Of a stretch of DNA of 64,000 nt, positions 5,320-41,827 are shown in pieces. The position numbers were made by a program, and so were the translations under genes. The notes beneath the pieces are model-generated. The model was not told where the DNA came from, made no database searches, and saw nothing but the letters and a program-made list of their open reading frames with translations. This DNA is from an uncultured delta proteobacterium (GTDB taxonomy: Bacteria > Desulfobacterota > Desulfobacteria > Desulfobacterales > JAHEIW01): positions 577,519 through 641,518 of the forward strand of contig CAVPNL010000004.1 in assembly GCA_963706575.1 (NCBI GenBank). The letters are read 5' to 3'. The stretch's first letter is position 1. Each line of letters opens with the position of its first letter.

Positions 5320-6234
5320 TCATTTACTCAATTTATTCTGTTTTATGTCAATTTCTCGCATCAGTTTGAGGACGGCCAGTTCTTTGGCTTTTGCTTCAAC
5401 TTCCACGGTAATGTCCAGGTTCAGCCAGAATACCGGAAAGTCCTTGAGATTAATGTAATCATGATGATTTCGGTGATTTCCATTCTCCCAGGGCTGTAAA
5501 GGACTCGAAATATGAAAAAGTGGCTCCCGGTTCCAAGTTTTCAGTACCTGATGAGTCGCGTCTTTAATGCTCAGACCGTCAGGCAGGCAGCGATGATGAT
5601 GTAGGTCGTATACGAGAGGGATTTTCAATTTTTTGCAAATTGGCAGCAAATCTCGGGGCGTATACAGCCTATCATCGTTCTCCAGGGTAAGGCGACAGCG
5701 AATGCTTCGTGGTAGACTCCGAATTCCCCTAACCAGGCGTTGTAGGGCCTTATCCTTGTCTCCGTAAACACCACCGGCGTGAATATTGATCACATCGGCG
5801 TTGACCCATTTCGCAACTTCCGTCTGATATCTAAGATCGGCAATTGATCTGCGGGTAACCTCTGGATTCGGCGATGATAATAGAATGAACTGATCGGGGT
5901 GGAAGCTCGTACGCATATCGTTTCTTCTGCAGAAAGTCCCGCATTTTTTGAATTTGTTCACGATTTCATTGGATTGGGGCAACGCTTCTATGGTGTATCC
6001 TAGTTTAGGATGTGTTTTAAGTGGCAAAATCTGGCTGTTGATCCGAAAGGCGTTAATACCATTACGCCGACAAAATTTAAGTGCCGCGAGAAGAGAATTT
6101 GCGTTGTGCAGGCAGATACCGGAAATATAATCCATCCGCTCGTTCGGAGATAGTTTGCTTAAGTACCTTGCTGTCGTGCGGCGGAACTTTATTGGCTCTT
6201 CACGAAAAATACAACACAGACCCCATCGAATCAT
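5320..6234 (-). CDS. uvsE: UV DNA damage endonuclease (UvsE/UvdE)
   Basis: FRI.SQILP..THP, SFHPDQF..L.S, NIH.GG.YGDK, LENDD, VYDLHHH, HISS, VEAKAKE. Confidence 0.93.
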   Translation of the reverse strand: MIRWGLCCIFREEPIKFRRTTARYLSKLSPNERMDYISGICLHNANSLLAALKFCRRNGINAFRINSQILPLKTHPKLGYTIEALPQSNEIVNKFKKCGTFCRRNDMRTSFHPDQFILLSSPNPEVTRRSIADLRYQTEVAKWVNADVINIHAGGVYGDKDKALQRLVRGIRSLPRSIRCRLTLENDDRLYTPRDLLPICKKLKIPLVYDLHHHRCLPDGLSIKDATHQVLKTWNREPLFHISSPLQPWENGNHRNHHDYINLKDFPVFWLNLDITVEVEAKAKELAVLKLMREIDIKQNKLSK

Positions 6235-6685
6235 GACTGACCTTTCTTCAAAAAGATAGCTGGTCTAATTTTAAGTATCTTTTGGACCAACATATCGAGC
6301 TAACTGACATTTTTTGATTGATACTTAGATTAACTCTTATTTGAGCTCCGTCAACCAATCACGACCCATAGGGAAAGCGAGCTCATAGTGACCTATTGTT
6401 GGTGACGAGTCCCAGTCAAAGGTTTGATTTTTTTGCATTTGCGGAATAAACCAAACAAAAAGGGCAGCAATTGTAGACCGGCTATTTTGATTTTTTCGCC
6501 ATCTGACTTGACTATGCAAAGCGAATTCTTAGAATTATTAATATTTTTGGGGTAGAGCTCACCCGTTAAGACGAAACATTGGAACATCTAAGGCCTGTGA
6601 ATCCGGCTGAGCAGGATGTTGTTTGTGTTTTTGCGAGCCATATGTTAAGTGAGATAGAAACTAAACGGAAAAGAAAGGACTAGAC

Positions 6686-6988
6686 ATGCAAGTACAAGAC
6701 TACTGCAAGGCGATGTTGGCTGAAGTTACAGCATGGAAAGAGAAGCTCGAGGCAATGAAAAAAGTCGCTGACAGCTATGGAACAGAACAGAAAGAAAAGG
6801 TACTTCCGCTTATCGGGCAGATAGAGCAGGAAGTCGTGAATGCGCAAATGCGTGTGCAGAAGCTCGAAACTGAATGCCCGTCTGACTGGTCGCCGATGAA
6901 AAATGAGCTCGATGATCTCTTCGGTACCATCGGAAGCAGTGTCGACCGTGCCTGGCGCGACCTGTCTCCTGGCGAAGTTGGTGGTTAG
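6686..6988 (+). CDS. Hypothetical coiled-coil protein
   Basis: Clean ORF with AAGGA RBS; followed by hairpin at 6999-7022. Confidence 0.7.
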   Translation: MQVQDYCKAMLAEVTAWKEKLEAMKKVADSYGTEQKEKVLPLIGQIEQEVVNAQMRVQKLETECPSDWSPMKNELDDLFGTIGSSVDRAWRDLSPGEVGG

Positions 6989-6998
6989 CAGAAATCCT

Positions 6999-7121: not shown

Positions 7122-7395
7122 CTAATCGCTAACATCTCTTTGTATCGCGAGGTAATGGGTAATTTCGTCTTTTTCTTTGCGGATCGGAACAATTTTCCAT
7201 TCCATCATGAATTCGGATCCATCTTTTCTATAATTAATTGCCTGACCGTGAAACAACCTCCCCTCGGAAGTATCCTGATTCAACCGTTCGAGTACGGCTT
7301 GATCGGTATTCGGCCCTTGTAGTATAGTGATTTGCCGATGATTTCATGGGGCCCATAACCGGTAAGCTCGCAGAACGCTGAATTTTTAAATAAAA
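7122..7395 (-). pseudogene. Frameshifted PAS (LOV-like) domain remnant
   Basis: Manual translation FLFKNSAFCELTGYGPHEIIGKS / (frameshift at ~7326) / ILQGPNTDQAVLERLNQDTSEGRLFHGQAINYRKDGSEFMMEWKIVPIRKEKDEITHYLAIQRDVSD*; not in ORF track. Confidence 0.8.
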
Positions 7396-7588
7396 AGGCT
7401 ACAAAGCGGACAGCGGCAGTTCCTTTTTTGTGTGCTCAAATACTAACCTTGCATGTCCAGCTCTATAGCCAAAAAAAATATGGGCATTGCGCTAAACTGC
7501 TGGCGCTTCATCGAGGCGCTATTTTTTGCATTGGATTCTCTGAATTTTGTCCACAACGTGAAAAATTTTAAACTTCCGAATGAATAAC

Positions 7589-8530
7589 TCAGCCGTTTTG
7601 CAGCTTTCGCAAGTTGTCGATTGCTATTCTGAAGCTATCAACATCCTTTAAAATCTGCATTTCAGGTCCATCGAAAAAACCAGCCAGAGGCGATGCGCCC
7701 TGCCCACCAATGAAAATAGTAATATCATCGCCCAAATAACGCCTCAATTTCTTTATCTCTAGATTCAATTGATGGCTGTCCTCATAATAGGTGATGCTAA
7801 GCGCCACTGCTCGAGCATCCGCATATGCTACCGCCGCTGCAATTTCTTCTGCCGGCAAACTGGGACCGAAATACAAGGATTGCCAGTTGGATTCACATGC
7901 AATTAATGCAATTGCCAGCGCGCCGAGCTCATGCTGATGTCCTGCCGGGGTCGCAATGACAATCTTCGGTGATGTCTCTGAAACTTCAGCTGAACGCAGC
8001 AGATTCCACAAAAAGGATCGGATGACCGTGGTTGTCATATGCTCATTGATGACTTTTAGCTCTCCGTGTTCCCATAACTCTCCGATTTTTTGGCATAGTG
8101 GTTCGATGACGGCCTTGATCAACTCCAATTTGCTCAGGTGTACCGCTGCTCGATCAAGGACAGATTCCAAACCTTTGGCATCAAAATTGAGGACGGTGGA
8201 CAGCGATCGTTCGTAGAAATAGGTCGCATCCAATGAAGCGGATTCGCGAGCAGTAGAAACCTCGGAAGCAGCTGGCACATCCAACTTAACGAGCTCCATC
8301 AAATCCTCGGGAGATAGACCTGCAATCTGAGAAATGCTGTGGCCGATTTTTACACCTGTTTTCAGCATCTTAAGGCGCTCGATATCCTTTCCGCAAAACA
8401 TCCGCCGGTTGGTTTCTGTTCTTTTGGGCACAACCGCCTGGTAGCGCTTCTCCCAAATACGTATTACATGTGTCGAAAGACCGGTTTGCTGTGCAACATA
8501 TCGAATTGGATATACATATTTAATTTTCAT
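7589..8530 (-). CDS. MerR-family cobalamin-binding transcriptional repressor (CarH/LitR type)
   Basis: N-terminal MerR HTH (IRIWEKRY...P.RT..NRR), W-x9-EH motif (WEHGELKVINEH), B12 Rossmann motif HQHELG (ExHxxG with E replaced by H), YFGP.LP, ALS. Confidence 0.92.
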   Translation of the reverse strand: MKIKYVYPIRYVAQQTGLSTHVIRIWEKRYQAVVPKRTETNRRMFCGKDIERLKMLKTGVKIGHSISQIAGLSPEDLMELVKLDVPAASEVSTARESASLDATYFYERSLSTVLNFDAKGLESVLDRAAVHLSKLELIKAVIEPLCQKIGELWEHGELKVINEHMTTTVIRSFLWNLLRSAEVSETSPKIVIATPAGHQHELGALAIALIACESNWQSLYFGPSLPAEEIAAAVAYADARAVALSITYYEDSHQLNLEIKKLRRYLGDDITIFIGGQGASPLAGFFDGPEMQILKDVDSFRIAIDNLRKLQNG

Positions 8531-8536
8531 GGCTGG

Positions 8537-8591
8537 AATATAACATTTTTCTTTGACATTGTCAAATTTTTGTTTAACTTATGTCTAATTT
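8537..8591. promoter_or_regulatory. Divergent sigma70 promoters overlapped by three 11-bp direct repeats (CarH-type operator)
   Basis: TTGTCAAATTT/TTGTTTAACTT/ATGTCTAATTT at 8559-8591, all matching nAnnTnnACAn on the minus strand; TTGACA on both strands (8553-8558 +, 8560-8565 -) with -10 boxes TAACTT (8575-8580 +) and TATATT (8537-8542 -). Confidence 0.8.
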
Positions 8592-8658: not shown

Positions 8659-11157
8659 ATGACCAGAGATGCAAACTCAACAGCGGATAACGAAAAGATC
8701 TTTGAAGATCAAATGAATATTCCAGAAGAATTACCCATCTTGACCCTAAAGGAGCAGGTGGCATTTCCAACACTGAATATGACCTTAGCGATTCAGGCGG
8801 AGGCAACTTCACTGATTGAAAAGGCCATGAAAGGCGATCGAATTATCGGGGCTGTGGGTATCCGGAATCCAGTTGATGATCAGTCCATGACCAAACGGGT
8901 CTTTGAAACCGGCACTGTGATCCGGATTTTGTATGCGACCCGTGCATCCGACAACACCACCCTGTTGGTTGCCAGGGGGTTAGAACGATTCCGTATCGAC
9001 CAATGGCTCTCAGAAAAGCCTTACCTGAAGGCTCGCATTACACTGGCTCCTGAAATAACTGAGACGGATATTGAGACGGATGCATTGTTTCGCAGCCTAC
9101 GCGGCCTCTCGCAGGAAGTATTTTCCTTGATGCCCAACATACCCAAAGAGGCGGTCGAAGGGCTGGCAAGCATCCGAGACCCTTTGCATTTAGCCTATAT
9201 CGCTGCCGCCCATGCCGATATCGATTTTCAAAAACGGCAAAATCTACTGGAAGAAGACCGCCTCAAGGTAAAGCTGCGCGAATCAGTGACGATCTTGTCC
9301 CGTGAAAAAGAGGTGCTGGCGCTCGGGAAAAAAATCCAAACCGAAGCCCAAGACGAAATGAACAAGTCACAGCGGGAATATTATTTGCGGCAGCAACTCG
9401 AGGCCATAAAAAAAGAGCTGGGAGAAACCAATGGCGAGAAATCCGAATCCGATGAATACCGACAACGCATCGAAAAATCAGACATGAGTGCCGAAGCGCG
9501 TAAAGAAGCCCTCAGAGAGCTGGACCGATTCGCCCAAATGACGCCCCAGTCGGCTGAGTACTCCCTGATCAAAACCTATCTGGACTGGTTACTGGATCTC
9601 CCTTGGAATCAACTAAGCGAGGATCAAGCGGATATTAAGGTCGCACGGGAAATCCTAGACGAGGATCACTATGGTCTGCAAGAGGTCAAGGATCGCCTTA
9701 TTGAATACTTGGCGGTTCGAAATCTTCTGAAGATCCGAGGACCCCAGAAAAATAAGGAACCCAAGGCGCCATTTTCAACCGCCATGGGCGTCATATTGTG
9801 TTTTGCCGGACCGCCGGGTGTCGGTAAAACCAGCTTGGGACAGAGCATTGCGCGAGCCATGGGGCGTGAATTTACTCGCATGAGCCTTGGCGGAATACGG
9901 GACGAAGCTGAAATTCGAGGTCACCGTCGGACATATATCGGCGCAATGCCGGGACGAATCATTCAGGCGATTAAGCGCGCCGGCACCCGCAATCCTGTCT
10001 TTATGCTGGATGAAGTCGACAAGATCGGTTCGGATTGGCGCGGCGACCCCAGTAGTGCCTTATTGGAGGTATTGGATCCTGCTCAAAACGCCACCTTTCG
10101 CGACCATTACCTGGATGTCGATTTTGACCTGAGCGATGTAATCTTTATTGCCACAGCCAATCAATTGGAAAGTATTCCGTTGGCATTGAGGGATCGTTTG
10201 GAAATCATTCAATTAGAAGGCTATACCGAGTTTGAAAAAACTCAGATCGCCAAACGACACCTAATTCCCCGGCAATTGACCAGTCATGGCCTGATCGATA
10301 GCGAGATGACCTTTATGGACGAGGCGATCCGGAAAATTATTAGTAGCTACACCCGCGAAGCCGGAGTCCGTCAACTAGAAAGGCTTATCGGTTCCGTCTG
10401 CCGTAAATGCGTCGTCAACCTGACGACCCATGGTTGGTCGCATGTCATCGTTACTCCTGAGCAAGTGACAGAATACCTGAAGAAAGAGAAATTCGAAACC
10501 GAACATTCTGAAGTTATTGATATGCCGGGCGTTGCAACCGGTTTGGCGGTGACGGCAAACGGAGGTGACATTCTCTATATTGAGGCAACGCGAATGCACG
10601 GTGACGGGCAACTGCACTTAACCGGTCAACTCGGCGACGTCATGAAAGAAAGTGCTCAAATTGCCTACAGCTATATCCGTGCACACGCCGAAAAGTTGGC
10701 GATTGAGCCCCAAGCATTTGATAAACGGAAAGTTCATTTGCACGTGCCGGCCGGTGCAATTCCCAAAGATGGTCCTTCGGCGGGAATCGCCATGACCATG
10801 GCCCTGGCGAGCCTGTTCAGCAACCGTCCCGTGCGCAGTGATGTCGGGATGACCGGCGAAATCACGTTACGCGGGCGCATACTTCCGGTGGGTGGAATTA
10901 AGATGAAGGTTCTAGCGGCCCACCGCGCCGGGCTCACGACCGTGATTTTGCCCAAGCGTAATGCACGCGATCTGCACGACGTACCCGAAGAGATTCGTAA
11001 TGCCATGCAATTTATACCGGTGGATCGGATCGATGAGGCCATCGATATCGGACTGACACGATCAGAAAACAGCGCGGGAGGCGATTATCGCCCCATTGAT
11101 CGTAACCTGGATCCACTCAACGAAGAGATTTCAGCGTTAGATTCTTCCGTTAGGTAA
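8659..11157 (+). CDS. lon: ATP-dependent Lon protease (endopeptidase La)
   Basis: GPPGVGKTS, DEAEIRGHRRTYIGAMPG, PKDGPSAG catalytic Ser motif. Confidence 0.97.
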   Translation: MTRDANSTADNEKIFEDQMNIPEELPILTLKEQVAFPTLNMTLAIQAEATSLIEKAMKGDRIIGAVGIRNPVDDQSMTKRVFETGTVIRILYATRASDNTTLLVARGLERFRIDQWLSEKPYLKARITLAPEITETDIETDALFRSLRGLSQEVFSLMPNIPKEAVEGLASIRDPLHLAYIAAAHADIDFQKRQNLLEEDRLKVKLRESVTILSREKEVLALGKKIQTEAQDEMNKSQREYYLRQQLEAIKKELGETNGEKSESDEYRQRIEKSDMSAEARKEALRELDRFAQMTPQSAEYSLIKTYLDWLLDLPWNQLSEDQADIKVAREILDEDHYGLQEVKDRLIEYLAVRNLLKIRGPQKNKEPKAPFSTAMGVILCFAGPPGVGKTSLGQSIARAMGREFTRMSLGGIRDEAEIRGHRRTYIGAMPGRIIQAIKRAGTRNPVFMLDEVDKIGSDWRGDPSSALLEVLDPAQNATFRDHYLDVDFDLSDVIFIATANQLESIPLALRDRLEIIQLEGYTEFEKTQIAKRHLIPRQLTSHGLIDSEMTFMDEAIRKIISSYTREAGVRQLERLIGSVCRKCVVNLTTHGWSHVIVTPEQVTEYLKKEKFETEHSEVIDMPGVATGLAVTANGGDILYIEATRMHGDGQLHLTGQLGDVMKESAQIAYSYIRAHAEKLAIEPQAFDKRKVHLHVPAGAIPKDGPSAGIAMTMALASLFSNRPVRSDVGMTGEITLRGRILPVGGIKMKVLAAHRAGLTTVILPKRNARDLHDVPEEIRNAMQFIPVDRIDEAIDIGLTRSENSAGGDYRPIDRNLDPLNEEISALDSSVR

Positions 11158-11248: not shown

Positions 11249-13114
11249 ATGCAGAATCAAAATCGGCTAAGAACATTAATAATTATTGGTGGTATTTGGC
11301 TTGCCTTGCTGCTGTTTAATTTTCTATCGACGAATGCCGCCGTGAAGACAATACCATACAGCGAATTCTTACAACTCGCCAAAGAAGGAAAGGTTTCGGA
11401 AGTTGCGGTGTCAGACAATGTCATTCAGGGCAAAATGTTTACCGACAACTCCGACCCTGAACAGGGCGAATCCTTCCAAGCGGTACGGGTCGATGCGGAA
11501 ATCTCTGATGTACTTGAGCAAAACGGCATTGAATATGCCGGAAAAATCCAGTCGAATTTTCTTTCAAATCTTTTTTCATGGATTTTTCCAGTGCTCCTGT
11601 TTCTTGGCTTATGGTTTTTGATTATGCGACGATTTCAAAAACAGCAGGGGGGATTCATGACCCTGGGTAAAAATAAGGCCAAAATCTACATGGAAAACGA
11701 CGTCGAGGTCAGATTCGAAGACGCCGCGGGCGTTGATGAGGCCAAAGAGGAACTGGTGGAGGTTATCGATTTTATAAAAGAACCCGAGCGGTTTACACGC
11801 ATCGGCGGACAGATTCCGCGCGGCATTTTGCTGGTCGGCCCTCCTGGCACCGGAAAAACCCTGTTGGCAAAGGCAGTGGCTGGGGAAAGCGGAGTGCCTT
11901 TTTTCAGTTTAAGTGGCTCGGAGTTCGTCGAAATGTTTGTCGGTCTGGGCGCAGCACGGGTAAGAGACTTATTTAAACAGGCCAAAGACAATGCGCCCTG
12001 CATCATTTTCATCGATGAACTGGACGCCCTGGGCAAAGCAAGGGGATTCGGCACCGTCGGCGGGCACGATGAACGCGAACAAACTTTAAATCAGCTTTTG
12101 GTGGAATTAGACGGATTTGATCCGAATATCGGTGTCATCTTGATGGCGGCGACCAACCGCCCGGAGATCCTTGACCCCGCTTTGCTGAGGCCGGGTCGTT
12201 TTGATCGCCAGATACTGGTTGATCGACCCGACAAACAGGGCAGGAAAGAAATTTTAAAAGTTCATCTCAAAAAAATAACGGCCGCAGATGATCTGGACGT
12301 TGATACCCTGGCCGGTATGACTTCAGGCATGGTGGGAGCCGATCTTGCCAACCTGGTCAATGAGGCTGCCCTTTTATCCGTAAGAAGAAATAAGCCTGCA
12401 GTGGGTATGACCGAGTTTGAAGAGGCGGTTGAAAGGGTCGTTGCCGGTCTTGAGAAAAAGAATCGGTTGATCAACCCGAAAGAAAAAAAGATTGTCGCCT
12501 ATCATGAACTCGGGCATGCGATTGTCGCCATGACACTGCCCGAAACCGATCCTGTCCAAAAGATCTCTATTATCCCGCGGGGTATTGCTGCCCTTGGCTA
12601 TACCATGCAGGTGCCCACTGAAGATCGGTTCTTAATGCGCCGAACCGAGTTGTTGAATCGAATTGCGACGCTATTGGGCGGACGGGCTGCTGAGGAAATT
12701 GTATTTGATGATATTTCCACCGGTGCACACAATGACCTCTCCAGAGCGACTGATATCGCGCGTAGCATGGTCAAGGAGTACGGCATGAGCCGTCAATTGG
12801 GGCAGGTCTATTTTTCCCGCAATAAGCAAAGCCCATTTCTCAATGCGAATCCGGACAGCGGTGGTGATTACAGTGAAATGACGGCTCACTTAATCGACAA
12901 AGAGATTCGTCAAATCATCGATGAGCAGTATGAAAGAGTTCTGGGCATATTAAAATCCAGGCGGGATATTTTGGATGAGGCTGCGAAGAAACTGCTGGAA
13001 AGTGAGGTCATAGAGGGCGAGGAGCTCAAAGCACTGGCGGAGACCGTGTCACAAAGCGGAATGCCAGAAGACGATTCCGGTATTTCACAAAGCAGTCATG
13101 CCCTGGCGGCTTAA
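11249..13114 (+). CDS. ftsH: ATP-dependent zinc metalloprotease FtsH
   Basis: Two TM segments, [31 protein letters not shown]. Confidence 0.97.
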
Positions 13115-13190
13115 CCTGTCTGGGAGGGGTTTCAAAACCCCATCTGTTGGATGTAGCAAATAAATTAAAATCTTATCGGAGGTGAATCCC

Positions 13191-13682
13191 ATGAAAACGT
13201 TAATATCTATTATCATATTGATTCTGTTTATCGTCCCCAATGTAATGGCTGCAGGTAGTGCATCGTCCAGCCCTGCCGTTTCCAAGGATGTTAAAATCTA
13301 TAACAAAGGGGTTAAGCTGATGCTGGACAAGAAATTTGCTAAAGCTGAAAAGCAATTCCGGAAAGCCCTGGAAATTAACGAGCGTTTCGCAGAAGCCCAT
13401 AATAACCTGGCCTATACTTTAAGAAAGCAGGGGGCCGATCATTTCGACGAGGCCCTGATGAATTATAATCGGGCGATCGAGCTAAATCCGAATTTACCAG
13501 AACCGTATATGTATCGCGGGGTGCTGTATGTACAGATGGGAAACAAATCGTTCGCGCTGAAAGATCATGAAAAGCTGGTCACGATGGGCCCACCCCTATC
13601 AGATGAACTGGAATACGTTGTGGTCAATGGACGCGAAAAAGAGCCTGAACAATTTTTCGGTGTATCGCGTAAGATGAAATAG
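13191..13682 (+). CDS. Exported TPR-repeat protein
   Basis: Signal peptide, AEAHNNLAY and YNRAIELNP TPR motifs; GGAGG RBS. Confidence 0.85.
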   Translation: MKTLISIIILILFIVPNVMAAGSASSSPAVSKDVKIYNKGVKLMLDKKFAKAEKQFRKALEINERFAEAHNNLAYTLRKQGADHFDEALMNYNRAIELNPNLPEPYMYRGVLYVQMGNKSFALKDHEKLVTMGPPLSDELEYVVVNGREKEPEQFFGVSRKMK

Positions 13683-13886: not shown

Positions 13887-14249
13887 ATGAATAAAAAAAA
13901 TCTCCAATACTTTAAGCGTAAGCTCACTGCACAGCTTCAAGATTTATTGACCGGCTCTGATTGTAATTTTGGCGACCTTAAGGCACCCGACGAGCATCTG
14001 GCGGATCCGGTCGACCGGGCAACTTATACCACCGAGCGTAATTTTTCCCATCATCTGTGCAGCAGGAACAACAGTGTCATCAAAGAAATCGAGCAGGCAC
14101 TGCAGGATATTGAAAATGGTGATTACGGCATTTGTGACCGCTGCAACGAGGATATTCCCATCAAGCGGTTAAAAGTCCGGCCGATGGCGCGCTATTGTAT
14201 CAGCTGTAAATCGCAGCTTGAAAATGAACAGATGCTCGCCGACAGTTGA
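13887..14249 (+). CDS. TraR/DksA C4 zinc-finger protein
   Basis: DPVDRA coiled-coil tip; YGICDRC..I...RL...P.ARYCISC. Confidence 0.9.
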   Translation: MNKKNLQYFKRKLTAQLQDLLTGSDCNFGDLKAPDEHLADPVDRATYTTERNFSHHLCSRNNSVIKEIEQALQDIENGDYGICDRCNEDIPIKRLKVRPMARYCISCKSQLENEQMLADS

Positions 14250-14274
14250 GCCTCAAATATTCAGGAGAACACCA

Positions 14275-14838
14275 ATGACAAACTCAATAACAAGACCTAT
14301 GCCAATTTTTGCGGCACGGTTTAAAATAATACCTTTTTTAGTGCTGTTTTTTGCGATAACGGGCTGTGCGACCGCCCCCCCGATTGAAACGGTTGATTCG
14401 GTCAATATAGAGCGTTTCATGGGAGACTGGTATGTGATCGCCAATATTCCTCACGCTATTGAAAAAGATGCTTATAACGCCCTTGAATCTTATCGTCTGG
14501 CTGAGGATGGAACCATTGAAACAACCTTTACTTTCAACAAGGGCGGTTTCGATGGCCCACTCAAGACCTATAAACCCCGGGGGTTTATTCAGGATAAGGA
14601 ATCAAATGCTGTTTGGGGAATGCAGTTTTTTTGGCCGATTAAGGCAGAGTACCGCATCATCTATCTTAACGAGGATTATACCCAAACGGTCATCGGTCGC
14701 ACCAAAAGAGACTATGTCTGGGTCATGGCCAGAAAACCTTATATTCCGCACGATGACTACAACCGGATCTTGGATTTTATCAAATCGCAGGGCTACGACC
14801 TGAGTAAGCTGCAAAAAGTTCCACAGCAGGTTAGATAG
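14275..14838 (+). CDS. Outer-membrane lipocalin (Blc family) lipoprotein
   Basis: Lipobox ITGC, RFMGDWYVIA, FFWPIKAEY, YVWVMAR; AGGAG RBS before 14275. Confidence 0.9.
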   Translation: MTNSITRPMPIFAARFKIIPFLVLFFAITGCATAPPIETVDSVNIERFMGDWYVIANIPHAIEKDAYNALESYRLAEDGTIETTFTFNKGGFDGPLKTYKPRGFIQDKESNAVWGMQFFWPIKAEYRIIYLNEDYTQTVIGRTKRDYVWVMARKPYIPHDDYNRILDFIKSQGYDLSKLQKVPQQVR

Positions 14839-14986
14839 GATCATTTAACGGATATTTAACGTATTTGCCGTCAGATGATTGTGTAATGTGTTCGTAACAC
14901 TATCCAAGATCCCGGTGGGGGATGTATTCTAATGACGGTTTGATTCTCTTTAAATACTGACCCTGCTTTATTGGAAGGACAACAAG

Positions 14987-30344: not shown

Positions 30345-30345
30345 A

Positions 30346-30714: not shown

Positions 30715-30791
30715 CAAATCTATGAGCTTCTCATAGGTGTGCTAAAAGAATAAGCCTCATTTTGAAAGCGGTGGGTTAGGAGAAAAGCGTC

Positions 30792-31169: not shown

Positions 31170-31200
31170 CGGCTCAGCTGCAGTTTGCCCGGAGGTTTAG

Positions 31201-32506: not shown

Positions 32507-33509
32507 TCACGTGTGCAAAATATCCGGCAATGGCTCAACGAGTCCATCGATCCAGCGAATTGGAAATTTTTCAATGCCGTAGGATGCCCCCATTAGCGCT
32601 CCAAGTACCGCCCCGCGCGCGGCGTTGTCACCGCCGAGATTGGTATTGGCGATGAGCGCATTTTCCGGATCATCGTGGTATTTTAATGCCAGATAAACAA
32701 CTGCCGGAATTGAGTCCTCAACATAACAGGCCGTGCTGAAGCGCGGACCCACCACCCAGTCGTCAGGATCATCCAGCCATTTGATAAAAGGATGTCCAAG
32801 CAAGGGATTTTGCTGTTTTGCAATTTCCTCAACGATGGCTTCTTTCAACCGGACGCCGTTGAGCACCTTCAGCAAAATATCGATCAACAATGATCCGGCA
32901 GTTTTCATTTTGGAACCGGGTGGGTAGCAGGTGGGTCAAGGCGGCCTCGCGGGCTTGGTCGGGCCGATTGAAATAAAAAACAACGATGGGAACAATTCCG
33001 AGCAGACCGCCGATATGCTTTTCTTCGACACCGCATCTGCGTGGCGGCATGTCCCTGGCATAATTTGCGAAGAAATTGCGATGGCACTCCTCGATGTAGG
33101 TGTCTTGGTGGTTGCCCGGGATTGTCATGAAGGCGATGTATCTTCTTAGAAAATCGTCTGCGTTGTAGGTGCCGTTTTGGTTTATCGAGTCAATGAGCAG
33201 CCGGCAAATTTTAACATTTAAGGTGTTCTCACCTGCTTTGAGAAACTGGTGATAATGAATGCCCTTTTGACCCCAGTAGGGGATTTGATCGTGCAGAATT
33301 TCGCCTTTTGCGTTTGACGCTTTGTAGCTGGAGCGCCACAGAATGCTGTCCGGATGCGGATTGCGCGGTGCCAAGTAGTCTGTCACCCGGCCATAATCTC
33401 GATTGAGTGCCTGGCGGTTATAATACCAGTGAACTGGCATCGCCAGTGCATCGCCGATGCACAAACCGTAAAGCGCTCCGCGTGATATAGTATTGATGGC
33501 ATTCGTCAT
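32507..33509 (-). pseudogene. ADP-ribosylglycohydrolase, frameshifted near 32920
   Basis: N-part GDALAMPVHWYY (32829-33509) and C-part N.NLGGDNAARGAVLG (32507-32908) in different frames. Confidence 0.8.
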
Positions 33510-33824: not shown

Positions 33825-35555
33825 TTACATTTTGACCCTCTTTAGGTCATCAACCCAACTGTTTGCAATCCGGGCCGTTGACTGCACAATTCCATGTGCC
33901 ATACTGGCGTCGATGATCTGGCCTCTGGTCATCGCGCCGACAGCATAAATCGAGTTGGATTTAACTGGTCTTTTGTTAGACACCTTCCGAATAACATGGT
34001 GGGTCTCGGGATCTATCCACACGCTTCCGGTTTTATATGTATGTAATTTCGTTTTCGATTGATTGACGAATCGGTTGCCGAGGCCATTTTCTGGTTGAAC
34101 GGGTTGGGTTTCTTCATTTTGGACGATGCCCCGTTCAAGCAGGTTCTTCGTTAAAGGGGAGGGATCTATCTGGATGGACTTTGCCTGACCGCGTGCATTA
34201 ACCACATACCGGTAAGCATCTCTTTTTGTCTCACCGTTAGAATCCTGATAGATAAATTCCCAGACGTCTTTTGTGTCATTTTTGACAAATTGATTATTTC
34301 TTCCCAGTTTAAATACCTCAACCAGCCCGGACTTCATGAGCGCCAGCATTTTTTCAGCATTGATGGCTGGCTGGGTTGCTGCATGTGTAAAAAATATCGA
34401 AGTGTATGTTTTATCGAAACGCTTCCGATCTTCCAGCGATAGTCTCAGATAAATCTCTCGGACCATATCAAAGGACTGATGAAGGACGGTTTGCCACACG
34501 AGTTCGCCATCCGGCCCATCTCCACGTCTTGCGTCTTCCAAATATTGCTGTAACAGCTCTGCGGGCGGTCTCGTCGGGCTTACAACTGCTTTCCAATTAA
34601 TTGCGTGTCCGTATGCCGCTTCCAGCTCTGAATTTAATAACTGAAATACGGCTTCGAGGTTTAAATATCCTTGGTTTTCGGCGATCAAACTTTCCAATTT
34701 TTTGCGCGTCAGAAACATGTTGCGGTATTTACCCATCTTGCCTCTGACTTTCGGCAGCAGTCCTCTTCTGGAGTAGAGCGCAAATTTTCTTGGATTTGCG
34801 GGCGGGACATACACTAGTTCATTAGAATTATCACGAATAAAATTGCCATTTGAAGTGAGGGTTAAAACAACCTCTATGGCACTTAAACTCGTTCCAATTA
34901 CGGCGACTTTCTCGCCCTCTGGAATTTTTTCAAGTAATTGTCTCGCCGGCCACGGTGAGGGAAAGTAGTTATGCTGTTCTTTTTTTTCAAACCAATGCCC
35001 GGTTGCAAGCAAAATACGGTCGGCGAGACATGAAAAAGTTGACCCCGATAACAGTTGCTTCACGGTGAGATGGATCTTATCATCGCTTCGCTTTTCTAAA
35101 TCGATAACCTCAGATCCCGAAAAAAGTTCCACCCCAACACCCAGCGCTTGTGCTTTTTGATGGGCCTCTTGAAATTTTGCTTTAAGGTATTCGCCCATGA
35201 TTGCGCGTGGGTAATGATTGCAGCCTTCATAGCTAAAAGATGTATCATCTATCCATTGATAACGTTCTTTGAGCCGATCATGATTTATGGTCGCCCAATC
35301 TTGGAAATCCTCAGGATGGCCCACCAGGATGCCCATGTCCTTGGCACACATGTTCGTAATATGAAAGGGCATGACGTTTCTATCACAATGGGGAAAGCCG
35401 GGTCCGAAGATGTCTTGCTTTTCAAAAATCTGAATTTTAATCTCAGAAGGATTTAACAAGTTCAGATCAATTTCTTGTCGCACCTTCTCTACAAACATGT
35501 GAAGCATAGCGGTTCCCGTCAATCCACCGCCAACAATTGCAAAAGTAAAGCTCAT
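33825..35555 (-). CDS. FAD/NAD(P)-binding protein
   Basis: AIVGGGLTG, PRAIMGEYL, LATGH, VIGTSLSAI, SRRGLLP. Confidence 0.85.
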   Translation of the reverse strand: MSFTFAIVGGGLTGTAMLHMFVEKVRQEIDLNLLNPSEIKIQIFEKQDIFGPGFPHCDRNVMPFHITNMCAKDMGILVGHPEDFQDWATINHDRLKERYQWIDDTSFSYEGCNHYPRAIMGEYLKAKFQEAHQKAQALGVGVELFSGSEVIDLEKRSDDKIHLTVKQLLSGSTFSCLADRILLATGHWFEKKEQHNYFPSPWPARQLLEKIPEGEKVAVIGTSLSAIEVVLTLTSNGNFIRDNSNELVYVPPANPRKFALYSRRGLLPKVRGKMGKYRNMFLTRKKLESLIAENQGYLNLEAVFQLLNSELEAAYGHAINWKAVVSPTRPPAELLQQYLEDARRGDGPDGELVWQTVLHQSFDMVREIYLRLSLEDRKRFDKTYTSIFFTHAATQPAINAEKMLALMKSGLVEVFKLGRNNQFVKNDTKDVWEFIYQDSNGETKRDAYRYVVNARGQAKSIQIDPSPLTKNLLERGIVQNEETQPVQPENGLGNRFVNQSKTKLHTYKTGSVWIDPETHHVIRKVSNKRPVKSNSIYAVGAMTRGQIIDASMAHGIVQSTARIANSWVDDLKRVKM

Positions 35556-35801
35556 CTAAACCTTAGTCCTGACTTGTGTCCTTTGGTATCGCATACATAT
35601 GATTAAATCCCGACATTATAGATACAGAGAGGACCTTTAAGTTGTAACACCATGAGGAAAAGTGAACTATATTCGTTATAAGACTGTATTTCATGAAAGG
35701 CATATTAAGACAACTCATTTTCATTGAATTTATTCATTCGTTGTGTAATCCATAATTAAATTTATCTTGAATGCGCACCAATCAGAAGGATAGTTGCTTT
35801 T

Positions 35802-36611
35802 ATGAAACTACGCTACGATCCTTACCAGGTATTTCGGTTTAGCAAAACGCCTGTGGGTCTTTATGCCCGACAAAAGTGGCTTGGAGAAGCCGGAACGCCT
35901 CAGTGGAAAATTGACTTTAAGGAGACGGTAGTTGCACTTTTGGCGGACCAATTGCCTGATGGATCATGGCGTAGGGCCACGGTCGAAACCATTCATCGTC
36001 TGTTCGGGCTTCATCTGACAATGCGATCTTCCACTGCACAGATAGATACCGCCCTGACTTGGATTTTAGATAAGATCGCTTTTCAGGCAGAAGGGATTCA
36101 TATCCATGCCGAAGATATATCCACTATCCCCAATCTAAAGGGGCTTCCGTTTATCCCGAGTCGACCAGATATGTTTTTGACAGGCGCGGCGCTATTTCTA
36201 TCCACTATATTTGGCCGCCAAAGTTATCCAGATGTGCTGGCCTTGTATAAGTGGCTGAGTTCAGAAGGGATAAAAAACCAAGGCCGTTGGTTTGATGAGG
36301 CATCTTCCCACAATATTTTCCGCGCCATGGTCGTGCATCCCATATTTGCTAAAAAAAAGGCCACAATACTGGCGGCTAAGCATCTTGCTGAGTTGCAGAC
36401 AGATACGGGTTTTTGGAAGAATGATTTACCGTTTTATCAAACCCTTAATGCGCTGGCGCATTTGGATTTGCATCAGGTAGAAACCCAACTTGAAAAGGCC
36501 TTTGAACGGTTATTTGAAAATCAAAATAGCGACGGCACCTGGAGCAAGTCTGAGCCTGAGTGGAATACGTTTTTAGCAATTCATGCACTAAAAAATAAAG
36601 GGCTTTTGTGA
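35802..36611 (+). CDS. Hypothetical protein with prenyltransferase/squalene cyclase-like QxxDGxW repeats
   Basis: QLPDGSW, QTDTGFW, QNSDGTW. Confidence 0.65.
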   Translation: MKLRYDPYQVFRFSKTPVGLYARQKWLGEAGTPQWKIDFKETVVALLADQLPDGSWRRATVETIHRLFGLHLTMRSSTAQIDTALTWILDKIAFQAEGIHIHAEDISTIPNLKGLPFIPSRPDMFLTGAALFLSTIFGRQSYPDVLALYKWLSSEGIKNQGRWFDEASSHNIFRAMVVHPIFAKKKATILAAKHLAELQTDTGFWKNDLPFYQTLNALAHLDLHQVETQLEKAFERLFENQNSDGTWSKSEPEWNTFLAIHALKNKGLL

Positions 36612-36661
36612 TAAGGCTAATACATTGGAAAGTGATAGAGAACGGATTAGAATGCCCATTT

Positions 36662-37300
36662 TTAATATTTTTCTATAGGAATCAGCACTTCGTTGCGACG
36701 CAGAAACCAGGGCATGAATGGTGGGTCATAGCGTGCCCAGACCGGTGCGCCCTTTTTGGTCAAAACCCGTTTTCGAATGTATTCTTCCAACAGGGCTTTG
36801 TTTTCCTCGTACCCTTCTTCACTCCAGGTCCCTGAATACTTAACAGCGACCATTAGGCGGCCGGATTCTTCTGTCAACCTTACCCTTGTGTCATTGGGTT
36901 CCGGAAGCGTTTCCAGAGTATATTCTGCCGGCATGAGAAAAGTGATTCGCCATCGATTATCTTTCTTCTCCTGTTTGACCGGCGCGGTCATGGCAATTTT
37001 TTTCGAACCGGTTTCCTGGCTGATAGGCGCCGTCATGGAGATTGACTGCTTTTTGGTGTTCTCCCCGGAGATGTAGGCATAGAGGCGGCGAAAACCCTCA
37101 TTGCCTGCATTTTCTAGATCGCCTTCGACAAAGGTTTCAGCCACGATCTGGGGATCATACTGCCTGATTTCAAAACCATCTTCTTTCTCCAAAACTGTAT
37201 ATTTTGCTTTCTCAATGGCCATGGCCGATTTAACCACCAGTAATGATGAAACGCCTAAAAGCGCAAATCCGGCTAATCCAATAATTTTGAATGTTCGCAT
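36662..37300 (-). CDS. SOUL heme-binding protein
   Basis: FEIRQY, GFRRLY.YISG.N, IAMTAPV, YDPPF.P.FLRRNEV. Confidence 0.92.
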   Translation of the reverse strand: MRTFKIIGLAGFALLGVSSLLVVKSAMAIEKAKYTVLEKEDGFEIRQYDPQIVAETFVEGDLENAGNEGFRRLYAYISGENTKKQSISMTAPISQETGSKKIAMTAPVKQEKKDNRWRITFLMPAEYTLETLPEPNDTRVRLTEESGRLMVAVKYSGTWSEEGYEENKALLEEYIRKRVLTKKGAPVWARYDPPFMPWFLRRNEVLIPIEKY

Positions 37301-37886
37301 ATCGATTTCTCCTATAAAACAACAACGAAAATAACATAATCACGCAAACAATGTCTGCAAGGATGCTTCGAACCTTTAAGTGTCACCAATTGTGTGATCA
37401 TACAACTCGAACAAGCAAACATCCTTTTACAGGACTATCCTCACTCACAAAATTATTACGATATGATCTAAGCTTTGACATCACTGTTATTATTACCAGA
37501 AAAGAATTAGCTTGAAAACATTCAACTATGGGCAAATTAGAGACAAGCGGATATTTTGACTGCCCCGGGAAGATTTACCTTCAAAGCTGGAATCGTGAAT
37601 TTATTTGGTAACACTTTCTCAAAAATTAAGGACTATTTCTCAGTTGAACTTTCAGCCTTTTGATAACAATGATTGACAAAATGATATTATAATGTTCATT
37701 TTAATGCTGTTATTTCTGCATCAAAATAAAAGATAGGCATTCGCTATTAGTTCTGCCATATGAAAATTTGTAACAGACGTTTTTCCCCGTATTTATAGAT
37801 TATGATCGGAAATTTTTACACGGTGGGGTAAATATTCGCGCGTTTGCGATTGATATCTGCAGCTTGAACAAATATGGAGGTGGGGG

Positions 37887-38603
37887 ATGCCATTGAAAGA
37901 AAAAAAAGCGGTTGTGATTGGAGGCAGCTCTGGAATTGGTTTGGCCATTGCCAAGGCGCTTGTTAATTCTGGTGCGCACGTTGTCATTGCGAGCCGTTCA
38001 TCTAATAAACTGAATGAGGCGCAAAGAACCATCGGGGTGAATACAGTGGCCTATCGGCTGGACGTCACACAGGAGAAAAAGGTGCAGCAATTCTTCGAAG
38101 ATATCGGTCCTTTTGACCACCTCGTGTGCACTGCCGTTAGCGGGATAAACGCCCCATTCCTTGAAATGGATACCACTGATGCTAAAACTGTATTTAAGAC
38201 CAAGTTCTGGGGACAATACTATGCTGCCAGGTACGGGGCGCCCAAGATCAGGCCGGGGGGCTCCATTACACTGTTTTCCGGCATTGCCAGTCACAAACCC
38301 GTTGAGGGACTCTCCGCTATCGCTGCTGCGAATGGTGCCGTCGAGGCCCTCTGCCGCTCTCTGGCCGTTGAATTGGGGCCAATACGGGTCAACACTGTCT
38401 TACCCGCGGTCATTAGCACACCCCAATATGATCGCATGCCTGACGACAAACGCAAAAAATACTTGGAACACTACGGCGCTAAGCTTCCTGTGAAGCGTCC
38501 GGGGAACCCTGATGACGTGGCCGCAACCGTCCTTTACCTCATTTTGAATGCGCATACCACCGGGACCCTGGCAGAGGTCAACGGCGGCTATCGACTTGTT
38601 TAA
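37887..38603 (+). CDS. SDR family oxidoreductase
   Basis: IGGSSGIG, KFWGQY, LAVELGPIRVN. Confidence 0.9.
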   Translation: MPLKEKKAVVIGGSSGIGLAIAKALVNSGAHVVIASRSSNKLNEAQRTIGVNTVAYRLDVTQEKKVQQFFEDIGPFDHLVCTAVSGINAPFLEMDTTDAKTVFKTKFWGQYYAARYGAPKIRPGGSITLFSGIASHKPVEGLSAIAAANGAVEALCRSLAVELGPIRVNTVLPAVISTPQYDRMPDDKRKKYLEHYGAKLPVKRPGNPDDVAATVLYLILNAHTTGTLAEVNGGYRLV

Positions 38604-39087: not shown

Positions 39088-40638
39088 ATGATTATCATGC
39101 CCAAGCAAAAAACCCTGCGCCTGATTCTCGGCGACCAGCTGAACGAACTTCATTCCTGGTTTCAAAAACCGGATAAGAATGTCAGCTTTGTTCTGATGGA
39201 GATCCGCCAGGAAACAGACTATGTCGCCCACCATATCCAGAAGGTGGCGGCTTTTTTTGCGGCCATGCGGGCATTTGCCAAACGTCTGCGCGGTTTAGGG
39301 CATCAGGTCATCTACCTGAAACTCGATGACCAGCAGAATCACCAGACCATCGCCGGTAACATCGGTGAGTTGCTGAAGGGAAAGAAGTTCAACCGCTTTG
39401 AATACCTGCAACCCGACGAATTTCGCCTGGATCTCCAGTTGCGGGAGCTGTCTGAATCCCTCCCAGTGCCATGTGAAATGATGGACAGCGAGCATTTTCT
39501 CACCGGTCGCATGGAGCTTGAAGACTTTTTTGCCGGAAAAAAACGATATCTGATGGAGTCCTTCTACCGCTGGATGCGAATGCGCTATGACATCCTCATG
39601 GATGATAAGAGGCCTGTGGGTGACCAATGGAATTTTGATCAGAAAAACCGCCATCCTTACGACGGTAAAGTGCCTGTGCCCGAGCCACTGCTTTTCGAGA
39701 ACAACGTCAGCTCCGTCTGCAAAACCATCCGCAAAGCAAAGGTGGCGACCATCGGAGAGATCAAAGCCGACCGGCTGATCTGGCCCGTCTCCCGGGATCA
39801 GGCCCTCAAACTGCTGAAAAGCTTTGTCACCCACTTTTTGCCCGCCTTTGGCACTTATGAAGATGCCATGGTCGCAAATAACTGGCATCTGTTCCATTCT
39901 CGTCTTTCATTTGCTCTGAATACCAAGATGCTTCATCCACGGGAAGTCATAGAGGCAGCCGTCGCAGCATGGAAAAAAAAGTCTGGTGACATTGAAATCC
40001 ACCAGATTGAAGGTTTTGTCCGTCAAATCCTTGGGTGGCGGGAATACATGCGCGGCATTTACTGGACACTGATGCCCGATCTGGAAACCATGAATTTCTT
40101 CGATCAGAAAGCGACCCTGCCGAAATTTTACTGGACGGGTGAAACACGAATGAATTGCATGCGGTGCGCTATCGGACAGTCGCTGAAGCATGCATATGCT
40201 CATCACATTCAGCGCTTGATGGTTACCGGCAATTTTGCGCTGTTAGCCGGTGTTCACCCGGATGCGGTGGATGAATGGTATCTTGGGATTTACATCGATG
40301 CCATCCAGTGGGTGGAGCTGCCCAATACCCGGGCCATGAGTCAGTTTGCCGATGGCGGTCTGGTAGCCACCAAACCCTACATTTCATCCGCCAAGTATAT
40401 TCAAAAAATGAGTGACTACTGCGAAAGCTGCGATTATGACTGGAAGAAACGAAACGGGGACTTGGCCTGTCCGTTCAACAGTCTATACTGGCATTTTCTC
40501 CACCGGCACCGCCGGCGTCTGGAGATGAACCCGCGGGTGGGAATGATGTATCGGGTCTGGGACCGCATGAAAAATAATGAAAAGAAAGCTGTCTTAGATA
40601 AAGCCGCCGCCTACCTCCAGGAAATAGATCACCTCTGA
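39088..40638 (+). CDS. Cryptochrome/photolyase, FeS-BCP (PhrB/CryB) clade
   Basis: LILGDQL, HHIQK, EGFVRQILGWREY, AHHIQRLM, WVELPN, KPY.SS..YI..MSDYC..C, ACPFN; four FeS cysteines. Confidence 0.93.
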   Translation: MIIMPKQKTLRLILGDQLNELHSWFQKPDKNVSFVLMEIRQETDYVAHHIQKVAAFFAAMRAFAKRLRGLGHQVIYLKLDDQQNHQTIAGNIGELLKGKKFNRFEYLQPDEFRLDLQLRELSESLPVPCEMMDSEHFLTGRMELEDFFAGKKRYLMESFYRWMRMRYDILMDDKRPVGDQWNFDQKNRHPYDGKVPVPEPLLFENNVSSVCKTIRKAKVATIGEIKADRLIWPVSRDQALKLLKSFVTHFLPAFGTYEDAMVANNWHLFHSRLSFALNTKMLHPREVIEAAVAAWKKKSGDIEIHQIEGFVRQILGWREYMRGIYWTLMPDLETMNFFDQKATLPKFYWTGETRMNCMRCAIGQSLKHAYAHHIQRLMVTGNFALLAGVHPDAVDEWYLGIYIDAIQWVELPNTRAMSQFADGGLVATKPYISSAKYIQKMSDYCESCDYDWKKRNGDLACPFNSLYWHFLHRHRRRLEMNPRVGMMYRVWDRMKNNEKKAVLDKAAAYLQEIDHL

Positions 40639-41266
40639 CGGCGTAACCCGCATATTTAGGTGTGACGAACCAGATGTTATAAATCTGGTGACACCTGCAA
40701 CGCCCAGAGTACATAAGTGTTCTTGTATTTTCCCCCTTGAAGCAAAAAAATTCAAACTGCCAGCATTGCTGGCAGGCGGTGCGCATTAATATTTTATAAA
40801 GAAATAAAAAATGTCAAAATGTCTTCAGGTTAGACCAAAATTGGAAAGTAAAGACGAAAGAAAAATTTGCACCTCAATTATACTCAAAAGCACCAAAAAA
40901 ATTTTCACCCATCGGGCGAGCCGGAGCTTATATCAGTATGGAGCAGTTTGAGATTAGCTAACGCTATACACAAATTCTGAAAATTGTGTCTTCCGGATAT
41001 AAGCCCAACCTTTTGAAAAAGCTTACCTTCCGTTCGCCAATCTTCAATTTTTCGTATGCTCTCAATGATTCGATACAGCACGGAGCATACAGAATAAGGC
41101 AATTCTAAATTTGTTCTATTAGCTGATAAAATTCACAATGATATTTTCCGGTTTATAATATTCCGCACCTCCTCATGGCCCAGGTTGTCATTGGTCAATA
41201 TCGTGATTAAGATTACATTCATGATAATTAAAAATAATAGATATTTATTCTCAGGGAGGCAATGGA

Positions 41267-41827
41267 ATGGTCCAAATTACCCGGTTGGAACCAGAAAAGA
41301 AAAAGGGACTGGTTGTTGTGATTACCGGTCACGGGAAGGGAAAAACTACAACTGCGCTCGGGATTGCGGTCAGGGCCTGTGGGCACAACATCCCGACTTG
41401 CATCATTCAGTTCATGAAGGGTGACATATATGCGGGGGAATGGGATGGAATTAGGAAGATGAGTTGCCCGGTAGAGATAACCTCTACGGGGAAGGGTTTT
41501 TGTGGTATTCAAGGAAATCCTTATCCATACAAAGAACACAGGAAGAACGCCCAGGACGCTATCGAGCTGGCTCACGAAAGGATGCAATCAGGACAATTCG
41601 GTATCCTTATTCTAGATGAGATCAATAACGCTTTGCACCTCAAGCTCGTGGATCTCCAGCAGGTTCTTGAGATTATCCGCAAAAAGCCTCCTGAGATGCA
41701 TCTGGTGCTTACGGGAAGGGACGCGCATCATGAGGTAATTAAATTGTCAGATACGGCAAGTGAGATTCTTGAAGTGAAGCATGCTTACCAGCAGGATATC
41801 GAACCTCAACCTGGTATCGACTGCTGA
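41267..41827 (+). CDS. cobO: Cob(I)alamin adenosyltransferase (CobO/BtuR)
   Basis: TG.GKGKTT.A.G, IQFMKG, ILDEI, LVLTGR, KH.Y..GI. Confidence 0.92.
   Translation: MVQITRLEPEKKKGLVVVITGHGKGKTTTALGIAVRACGHNIPTCIIQFMKGDIYAGEWDGIRKMSCPVEITSTGKGFCGIQGNPYPYKEHRKNAQDAIELAHERMQSGQFGILILDEINNALHLKLVDLQQVLEIIRKKPPEMHLVLTGRDAHHEVIKLSDTASEILEVKHAYQQDIEPQPGIDC

Follow-up and report, generated by a model that had tools for sequence, protein, structure and literature searches.

A CarH-type B12 regulator predicted to control extra Lon, FtsH, and RpoH paralogues in a Desulfobacterales-like sulfate reducer

We analysed a 64,000-nucleotide stretch of DNA (hereafter, the window) that forms the end of contig C4 in the genome of an uncultured Desulfobacterales-like bacterium (5.67 Mb in 25 contigs, 91.8% complete and 6.4% contaminated), following up a first-pass annotation that had read the genes at 5320-41827 as the regulon of a B12-dependent photoreceptor. 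In this gene island, carH, which encodes a regulator of the CarH type, lies back to back with lon and ftsH, and farther along lies rpoH2, a gene for an accessory sigma-32-like factor. Our best explanation, to which we give a probability of about 0.6, is that these genes would make up a photo-oxidative stress circuit of two tiers, at whose head would stand a photoreceptor-repressor that uses adenosylcobalamin (AdoCbl); the circuit comprises a small direct tier (lon-ftsH and rpoH2) and a second tier that we infer to run via the sigma paralogue. As predicted from the DNA, CarH-type operators cover both the back-to-back promoters of carH and lon-ftsH and the promoter region between the rpoH2-M50-DUF2062 genes and a divergent alpha/beta hydrolase gene (abH), and the Lon, FtsH, and RpoH copies concerned are, by their phylogeny, extra paralogues travelling with CarH.

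The island regulator resembles the class I CarH/LitR proteins of Thermus thermophilus (PDB 5C8D/5C8E), Bacillus megaterium, and the Myxococcales (PMC9304148), with which it shares the domain order, the W-x9-EH cap, and the lower-ligand His. Its best solved relative by sequence is T. thermophilus CarH (TtCarH; E 7e-27), which is also the best Foldseek match (5c8d, E 4e-19) of its AF2 model (pLDDT 89). It scores far under the cut-off of the NCBIfam CarH equivalog NF052513 (113 vs 400 bits). The protein contains W153-x9-E163-H164, G197xxH200, and G222xxxP226, with W153, E163, and H164 aligning with TtCarH, and the light-response signature of GxxW, EH, GxxH, and GxxxP (defined in PMC11796333) is complete. 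Of 50 distinct CarH homologues, all have the cap Trp, 49 the Glu, and 48 the His, and 43 have the lower-ligand His; the recognition helix, RIWEKRY here (Lys for Arg relative to the RxWERRY type), follows RxWExRY in 47. The B12 motif retains His200, Gly203, S245-x-T247, and G275-G276, with a His at its acidic position. We regard light, sensed via AdoCbl, as the likely input.

Three points weigh against this assignment. Unlike the class I proteins, among which His132 is common but not universal, the island CarH has neither this residue nor the D/E residue of the B12 motif, and its identity to TtCarH is about 27%: (i) the His132 equivalent is Glu154, with His at that place in none of the 50 homologues, and (ii) the acidic residue of the D/E-x-H motif is replaced by H or Q in 49 of them. 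Further, (iii) TtCarH H132A mostly stays tetrameric, which disputes an earlier report cited in PMC10442372. CtMerR, however, with an Arg at the His132 place, is light-responsive (PMC11796333). The photocycle of the island CarH may therefore differ from that of TtCarH. In favour of the circuit, oxygen is needed for the full light state of TtCarH (PMC10442372) and is used by the furan-lipid protein UfaO (PMC7380195).

The same wiring could instead answer to oxygen exposure or to the supply of AdoCbl rather than to photons, with loss or oxidation of AdoCbl leaving the apo-repressor off the DNA and thereby turning on the proteases and a defence against oxygen. The family-wide loss of His132 and of the D/E residue fits such an input, as do the CarH arrays that some relatives carry before or beside an extra aprB and cytochrome bd genes, which are apparent oxygen-stress targets. 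Moreover, CbiC was not found in the host genome but a cobQ-cobU-cobS-cbiR-cobA cluster was, and AdoCbl salvage is therefore probable, with the corrin ring probably taken up rather than made de novo. The Trp-x9-Glu-His adenosyl cap, a mark of light-sensing CarH, is nevertheless kept in 48 of the 50 homologues, and the photolyases, uvsE, and the rhodopsin-retinal genes of relatives point to light, and we consider an input other than photons unlikely.

carH starts at 8530 on the minus strand and lon at 8659 on the plus strand; the two diverge across 128 bp, and the first of the two predicted operators lies in this spacer (Table 1). As in class I CarH/LitR systems (PMC9304148), the repeats are tandem 11-bp nnnnTnnACAn units with a -35 box inside one repeat and with divergent promoters. 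The genome-wide nAnnTnnACAn scan that the first-pass annotation had proposed returned a single strict triple array for the whole 5.67 Mb, the one between carH and lon. We also built an operator matrix from 44 repeats at the carH loci of 15 relatives, excluding the window, and this matrix gave 26 pairs of at least 15 bits genome-wide, of which the top three start at 8559, 8570, and 20230; the next-best site in the genome scores 20.6 bits, compared with 23.8, and two off-island matches lie at about 20 bits. Outside the training set, nine of 10 divergent loci score at least 14 bits.

The arrays are confined to few genes. Within the 220 bp upstream of each gene, in the window and its relatives, pairs of at least 14 bits precede lon (12/12) and abH (3/3), and one of eight copies of the 269-aa open reading frame (ORF); none precedes uvsE (0/3), dksA (0/7), Usp (0/9), the desaturase (0/9), SDR (0/7), DUF4174 (0/7), SOUL (0/3), the photolyase (0/5), or cobO (0/2). 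Likewise, no CarH array was found before dksA, lipocalin, or the chalcone-isomerase-like gene. For rpoH, the count in this frame is 0/9 because the site lies just beyond the frame or before a small EF-hand gene, and a scan of whole loci found arrays in all 10 rpoH2 loci with upstream DNA (the eleventh, L111, is without that DNA) and in none of 17 housekeeping rpoH loci. The small EF-hand protein (L125:2445-2756 and orthologues) has a signal-peptide-like start, and in six rpoH2 loci the CarH array is followed first by its gene, which is also found near carH in four other genomes.

Under operator 1, promoters can be predicted in both directions, with the third repeat forming the carH -35 box. 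The carH start codon follows 6 nt after the -10 box, and the predicted carH mRNA is thus probably leaderless. The lon-directed pattern (TTG-start -35, 16-bp spacing, and TAnnnT) recurs under the operator at 22 of 23 divergent loci and at two of 12 nondivergent loci with a same-strand operator, both of which face cytochrome bd genes (cydA). Two points count against this promoter, namely that (i) its -10 box matches the consensus at 3/6 positions, which is partly inherent in the repeat consensus, and was missed by a generic promoter scan, and that (ii) the criterion was set after inspecting the sequences and the genomes are related, which makes the 22 of 23 support and not a probability. We hold it very likely that CarH directly represses lon-ftsH and rpoH2.

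CarH homologues occur in 22 of 61 relatives and in 37 of 401 genomes of the order; among 400 other genomes of the phylum sample, one match was found at 1e-40, and the wiring was therefore followed within the order only. There, in the synteny check that the first-pass annotation had proposed, lon or ftsH lies divergent from carH within 600 bp in 23 of 53 distinct carH loci, the 23 coming from eight families, and the claim that a CarH-type B12 regulator directly faces lon-ftsH holds as a conserved link. The 53 loci include the window, and the 23 are the window and 22 other genomes, among them one with a decayed lon (G005) and one with a truncated ftsH (G097). The near-complete genomes with carH-lon-ftsH include G259, G097, G189, and G196. 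The remaining 30 of the 53 loci, which do not face lon or ftsH, speak against the link. One genome (G244) keeps phased repeats (12.3 bits) upstream of lon where its carH is 4 kb distant, and in another (G117), arrays precede ftsH with no carH on the 5 kb fetched. Of 23 sequencing runs, 14 are recorded as RNA; in the four runs compared, contigs of 99-100% identity cover stretches of the spacer between carH and lon and of lon, ftsH, M50, and rpoH2. As contigs from runs that possibly contain DNA and offer no light/dark contrast, these matches do not bear on regulation.

Phylogenies agreed with the suspicion that the island Lon, FtsH, and RpoH are extra paralogues, with housekeeping copies located elsewhere, in tilS-ftsH-folP, clpP-clpX-lon, and hsp20-lon contexts, and with the second, housekeeping rpoH falling into a 17-row clade with 100/100 support. 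In a 42-row Lon tree (FastTree only, with long outgroup branches), 16 linked Lons form one group (97), comprising 14 divergent from carH, that of G244, and one at a contig edge; L260 is labelled as linked although carH is 4 kb away. Their sister group consists of 23 Lons whose genes have no carH or ftsH in the vicinity. Arrays of at least 11.7 bits precede 15 of 15 linked lon genes, whereas none of the 23 sister-clade genes has one above 10.1 bits. Similarly, in a 38-row quick tree of FtsH, 14 of 18 members of the island group lie within 5 kb of carH, compared with none of 18 in the sister group; the modest support of the island clade (89 SH-aLRT) counts against this grouping. The rows of both trees are the top-scoring loci among the 57 and 94 genomes with matches.

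These comparisons bear on a simpler explanation, in which the array serves the autoregulation of carH only and lon-ftsH is a neighbour under its own constitutive or heat-shock control. The dual role of the third repeat as the carH -35 box, the presence of arrays at carH loci without lon, and the weak lon -10 box are all in keeping with it. However, the reverse-strand -35/-10 pattern separates divergent from nondivergent loci (22/23 vs 2/12), repeats persist upstream of lon or ftsH at loci where carH is not a direct neighbour, and dedicated Lon and FtsH clades track carH over the eight families, which renders autoregulation alone very improbable.

Several relatives show further carH neighbourhoods. 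carH is divergent from cydA, with the same back-to-back promoter design, in L052, L169, and L171, and it adjoins a catalase-peroxidase gene in L158 and L167. In two relatives (L156:15888-16672 and L162:11053-11634), CarH-type arrays stand next to an additional copy of aprB, which encodes the APS reductase beta subunit, and raise the possibility of a light-triggered replacement of a sulfate-reduction Fe-S subunit. The genus also has a second CarH type (~40-44% identical; L039-L050, L056, and L057), whose repeats lie on the opposite strand and which is usually followed by a gene for a 170-aa cytoplasmic TPR protein; this TPR family occurs near carH in ~20 loci, often with its own array.

As to the second tier, the claim that a single CarH regulon spans all 36 kb is not supported, since arrays stand only before carH/lon and rpoH2/abH. 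We give even odds that RpoH2 drives most of the remaining island genes. Among these, the lipid operon has the gene order of R. palustris ufaD-ufaO-ufaM, with a desaturase gene in addition (UfaO is a DUF1365 protein that uses oxygen; PMC7380195), and the photolyase has FeS-BCP as its best PDB match (E 2e-172), with C357, C445, C448, and C461 aligned with the cluster cysteines.

Alternatively, CarH may control the protease and sigma genes only, with the lipid, photolyase, uvsE, SOUL, and cobO genes forming an accreted stress island under other regulators, which is compatible with the first tier of our explanation and, though short of even, quite possible. Several points that weigh against the two-tier circuit fall here: the furan-lipid operon, photolyase, uvsE, SOUL, and cobO units have no CarH sites, either here or in relatives; DUF1365 occurs in 27 of 61 genomes, seven of them without a CarH match; and a second uvsE/MFS/DUF1295/lipid-operon cluster at 141-156 kb of contig C14 (68-78% DNA identity to the window genes), which contains several split genes and sits beside a LuxR-type regulator, also lacks an array. 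In addition, gene order varies among relatives, with cobO, SOUL, and the photolyase occurring in other contexts too, and no second-tier motif is enriched. On the other side, several relatives have the lipocalin-MFS block on one flank of rpoH2 and the Usp-cfa block on the other, and, in a search of 25 genomes of the family, all 10 rpoH2 genomes have a CarH match, whereas none of seven CarH-negative genomes has rpoH2.

In a search for a second-tier promoter, an enumeration of bipartite words over 18 gene sets returned nothing common to more than four genes. An element that we take to resemble the E. coli sigma-32 consensus has been conserved upstream of Usp, dksA, sll1863, and the 340-aa ORF, and a matrix was built from 15 sites before these four genes. 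It is not enriched, a further point against RpoH2 control, with five island matches at 13 bits (three of them training sites) where 2.5 would be expected; of 500 AT-rich upstream regions drawn at random, 9.2% score 9 bits or more with it. Nor does it stand consistently before the lipid operon, photolyase, or uvsE, and it is not common to the upstream regions of groES (28 scored, best 11.6 bits) or hsp20. With these enrichment and control tests failed, the element is therefore not counted as support. Separately, most family members (L215-L234) have, ~110 bases before groES, a conserved element resembling GGAAGGGAGGTGA with a hairpin after it and no CIRCE match, possibly an RNA element.

Returning to the two-tier circuit, we propose that in the dark, as in sediment, AdoCbl-bound CarH would cover both -35 boxes and the lon -10 box and would repress rpoH2. 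Green or blue light, probably together with oxygen, would break the Co-C bond and free the DNA, if known CarH biochemistry applies. Once released from repression, Lon and FtsH would clear photo-oxidised soluble and membrane proteins, and RpoH2 would, in what is the weakest step, transcribe the second tier (the furan-lipid operon, FeS photolyase, uvsE, lipocalin, Usp, and dksA). FtsH degrades sigma-32 in E. coli, and the island FtsH may turn over RpoH2 as a brake, after which newly made CarH would reset the switch. Cofactor binding, light control, protease substrates, and sigma targets are what we infer throughout this scheme.

Characterised CarH proteins mainly control carotenoid genes (PMC9758184, PMC11519972), and class I CarH/LitR systems thus differ from the island in their targets, which here are ATP-dependent proteases and a sigma-32 paralogue rather than crt genes, and in their hosts, the present one being a sulfate reducer. 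The Streptomyces LitR-LitS pair (PMC11519972) is likewise a two-step cascade in which a B12 photoreceptor gates a sigma factor gene. However, LitS is an extracytoplasmic-function (ECF) sigma encoded divergently from litR and drives crtE (PMC11519972), whereas the sigma factor here is RpoH-like, is encoded 11 kb away with a separate operator, and comes with no crt genes found. The class II LitR proteins of Pseudomonas (PplR/PmlR; PMC9758184) likewise have a carotenoid-free output that includes photolyase, cryB, SDR, FAD oxidoreductase, and ufaM. In contrast to the island CarH, they have no Rossmann B12 domain and act via a LOV partner, directly on an effector operon, through a TGTACA-N12 site (PMC9758184). 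The sections of that paper covered here name no Lon, FtsH, or RpoH, and its Table S1 of light-induced genes could bear on the novelty of a lon/ftsH output. The lipid/photolyase set has already been published under a LitR/CarH-family repressor in Pseudomonas (PMC9758184). Our literature search, which ran mostly without subscription papers and left supplements aside, found no CarH with Lon, FtsH, or RpoH and no CarH in sulfate reducers. The wiring, which is conserved, was not found in print, and its distinctive direct targets are the proteases and the sigma-32 paralogue.

In Rhodobacter, RpoE controls rpoHII, and the RpoE-ChrR singlet-oxygen regulon parallels the island in placing a master switch above an RpoH paralogue. 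A second parallel is the UfaM/UfaD/UfaO furan fatty acid pathway (PMC7380195), as the FAD oxidoreductase-DUF1365-methylase order of the island is that of R. palustris ufaD-ufaO-ufaM. However, the top switch here is a B12 repressor, no ChrR was found, and the lipid genes have no top-switch site. The ChrR profile (TIGR02451) had no match in the 91.8%-complete genome and was positive in a Caulobacter control; the best Cupin_7 match is a stand-alone 121-aa protein and not a ChrR beside an ECF sigma. The system is not an RpoE-ChrR system. The earlier suggestion that CarH replaces RpoE-ChrR survives as an analogy of wiring, while sigma control of the effectors stays a conjecture.

Table 1. Features of the island and its predicted regulatory sites (window coordinates).
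Feature	Position	Strand	Remarks
uvsE UV endonuclease	5320..6234	-	NCBIfam; no CarH array
sll1863-family small stress protein	6686..6988	+	NCBIfam
PAS remnant (LOV-like, no photoactive Cys)	7125..7396	-	Frameshifted; downstream of carH; intact in relatives
carH	7589..8530	-	313 aa; MerR helix-turn-helix + B12-binding_2 + B12-binding
Predicted carH sigma-70 promoter	8537..8565	-	-35 8565-8560 (third repeat), extended -10 8542-8537; 11/12 consensus
Predicted lon-ftsH promoter under operator	8553..8580	+	-35 8553-8558, 16-bp spacer, weak -10 8575-8580
Operator 1 (predicted), three tandem 11-bp nAnnTnnACAn repeats	8559..8591	-	Between carH and lon
lon, extra paralogue, CarH-linked clade	8659..11157	+	Walker A/B, catalytic Ser/Lys motifs present
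ftsH, extra paralogue, CarH-linked clade	11249..13114	+	Walker A/B, SRH, HExxH present
TPR protein, signal-peptide-like N-terminus	13182..13682	+	Probably co-transcribed with ftsH (67-bp gap)
dksA paralogue (DxxDxA, 4-Cys finger), lipocalin, chalcone-isomerase-like, GPH-type MFS, DUF1295	13887..17783	+	Pfam, NCBIfam
DUF2062 + M50 site-2 protease (HExxH)	17780..18982	-	Downstream of rpoH2, probable operon
rpoH2, accessory sigma-32-like factor	19015..20016	-	PRK06596 over cut-off; separate from housekeeping RpoH clade
Operator 2 (predicted), two tandem repeats	20230..20251	-	Before rpoH2 and divergent abH; third-best site genome-wide
Alpha/beta hydrolase (abH)	20266..21363	+	Pfam; divergent from rpoH2; true start probably further in
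Usp, DUF1499, DUF2177	21386..22737	-	Pfam; conserved sigma-32-like element near 22823, no CarH array
Desaturase, FAD oxidoreductase (UfaD-like), DUF1365 (UfaO-like), cfa-family methylase (UfaM-like)	23316..27799	-	Furan-fatty-acid-type operon; no CarH array
DUF4174 + SDR	27914..29227	-	Pfam; upstream of lipid operon
Three ORFs (340, 152, 125 aa) + flavin amine-oxidase-like gene	29322..32466	+	Conserved in relatives' islands
ADP-ribosylglycohydrolase	32507..33509	-	Split by frameshift near 32920; single ORF in relatives
FAD/NAD(P)-binding protein (-), 269-aa ORF (+), SOUL haem-binding protein (-), SDR (+)	33825..38603		
FeS-type (6-4) photolyase/CryB	39088..40638	+	DPRP domain; no CarH array
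Third cobO/cobA copy	41267..41827	+	Just under cobA cut-off, 146.5 vs 167.75 bits

Every gene that the first-pass annotation had listed at 5320-41827 is present and belongs to the family named (Pfam, NCBIfam). The lon-ftsH gap is 91 bp. For the 340-aa ORF, Atlas gave unnamed clusters only. The frameshifts in the PAS gene (7125-7396) and in the ADP-ribosylglycohydrolase gene (32507-33509) may be sequence errors, both genes being intact in relatives; as a working LOV partner, the PAS remnant is ruled out by its frameshift and its lack of a photoactive Cys. We also rejected cobO as a regulon member, as it has no CarH array and lies outside the island in the sole close relative seen (G014). DUF4174 and the 340-aa ORF are separated by a strongly conserved 94-bp spacer (29228-29321), which has short palindromes and no CarH array, and a further regulator may bind it. 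A second DUF1295-like gene lies outside the island (56793-57539), and two short unlisted ORFs before recQ (45220-45700) resemble, by eye, an antitoxin and a RelE-type toxin. Elsewhere in the assembly, the start of contig C13 is ~98% identical to the end of C14, which suggests strain mixing or assembly overlap.

The taxonomic check placed the host as a Desulfobacterales-like sulfate reducer, with dsrA and dsrB over their cut-offs. Its description as an anaerobe needs a caveat, as the genome also matches a cbb3-like oxidase (below NCBIfam cut-offs) and the cydA (74%), catalase-peroxidase (92%), and DNA photolyase (87%) of relatives. The reported absence of crt genes was reproduced within the window, and, genome-wide, crtI (TIGR02734) had no match over the cut-off in the 91.8%-complete assembly. 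The sole SQS_PSY match was rejected as crtB, since it stands alone and its best score, below cut-off, is for squalene synthase.

A rhodopsin is encoded by four of the 61 relatives, each of which has carH-lon-ftsH as well. Three of these (G007, G008, and G015, all dsrA-positive) have a third rpoH paralogue with 72-78% identity to rpoH2. It comes after a stand-alone domain of the B12 photoreceptor type (W-x9-EH, E-x-H) and a two-component set, and after it lies a rhodopsin gene whose product is most similar to Na+ pumps and, in the alignment, shows an NDQ-type motif. The clusters of G015, G007, and G008 (L121:4260-18261, L122, and L129) and that on G027:C50 also hold histidine kinase, response regulator, hemerythrin, encapsulin, rhodopsin, and retinal genes, and in G015, crtI, crtB-like, lycopene-cyclase-like, and blh genes follow the rhodopsin. 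The rhodopsin-retinal cluster is independent evidence that the genus meets light.

Beyond the circuit itself, we offer a broader and rather doubtful conjecture. The His132-less B12 photoreceptor of many Desulfobacterales might act as a light-and-oxygen coincidence detector that launches a self-limiting proteostasis response, in which Lon, FtsH, and a sigma-32 paralogue are made and the latter is then removed by FtsH, and the proteases may recycle spent CarH and its cobalamin; taken with the rhodopsin-retinal clusters that the sister sigma paralogue heads in relatives, light would serve these "dark anaerobes" as a routine regulatory input and, in certain lineages, as a source of energy. The natural loss of His132 across the clade would also test the need for that residue in DNA release, on which reports for TtCarH disagree.

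In summary, the link between CarH and Lon, FtsH, and a sigma-32 paralogue, if true, would be a new kind of output, tying a photoreceptor to protein quality control. Sulfate reducers have been described as specialists of deep anoxic sediment (PMC8443593). If the circuit operates as proposed, it would offer a testable route by which they survive stirring into sunlit oxic layers, and our analyses suggest that marine sulfate reducers have a dedicated response to sunlight and air.

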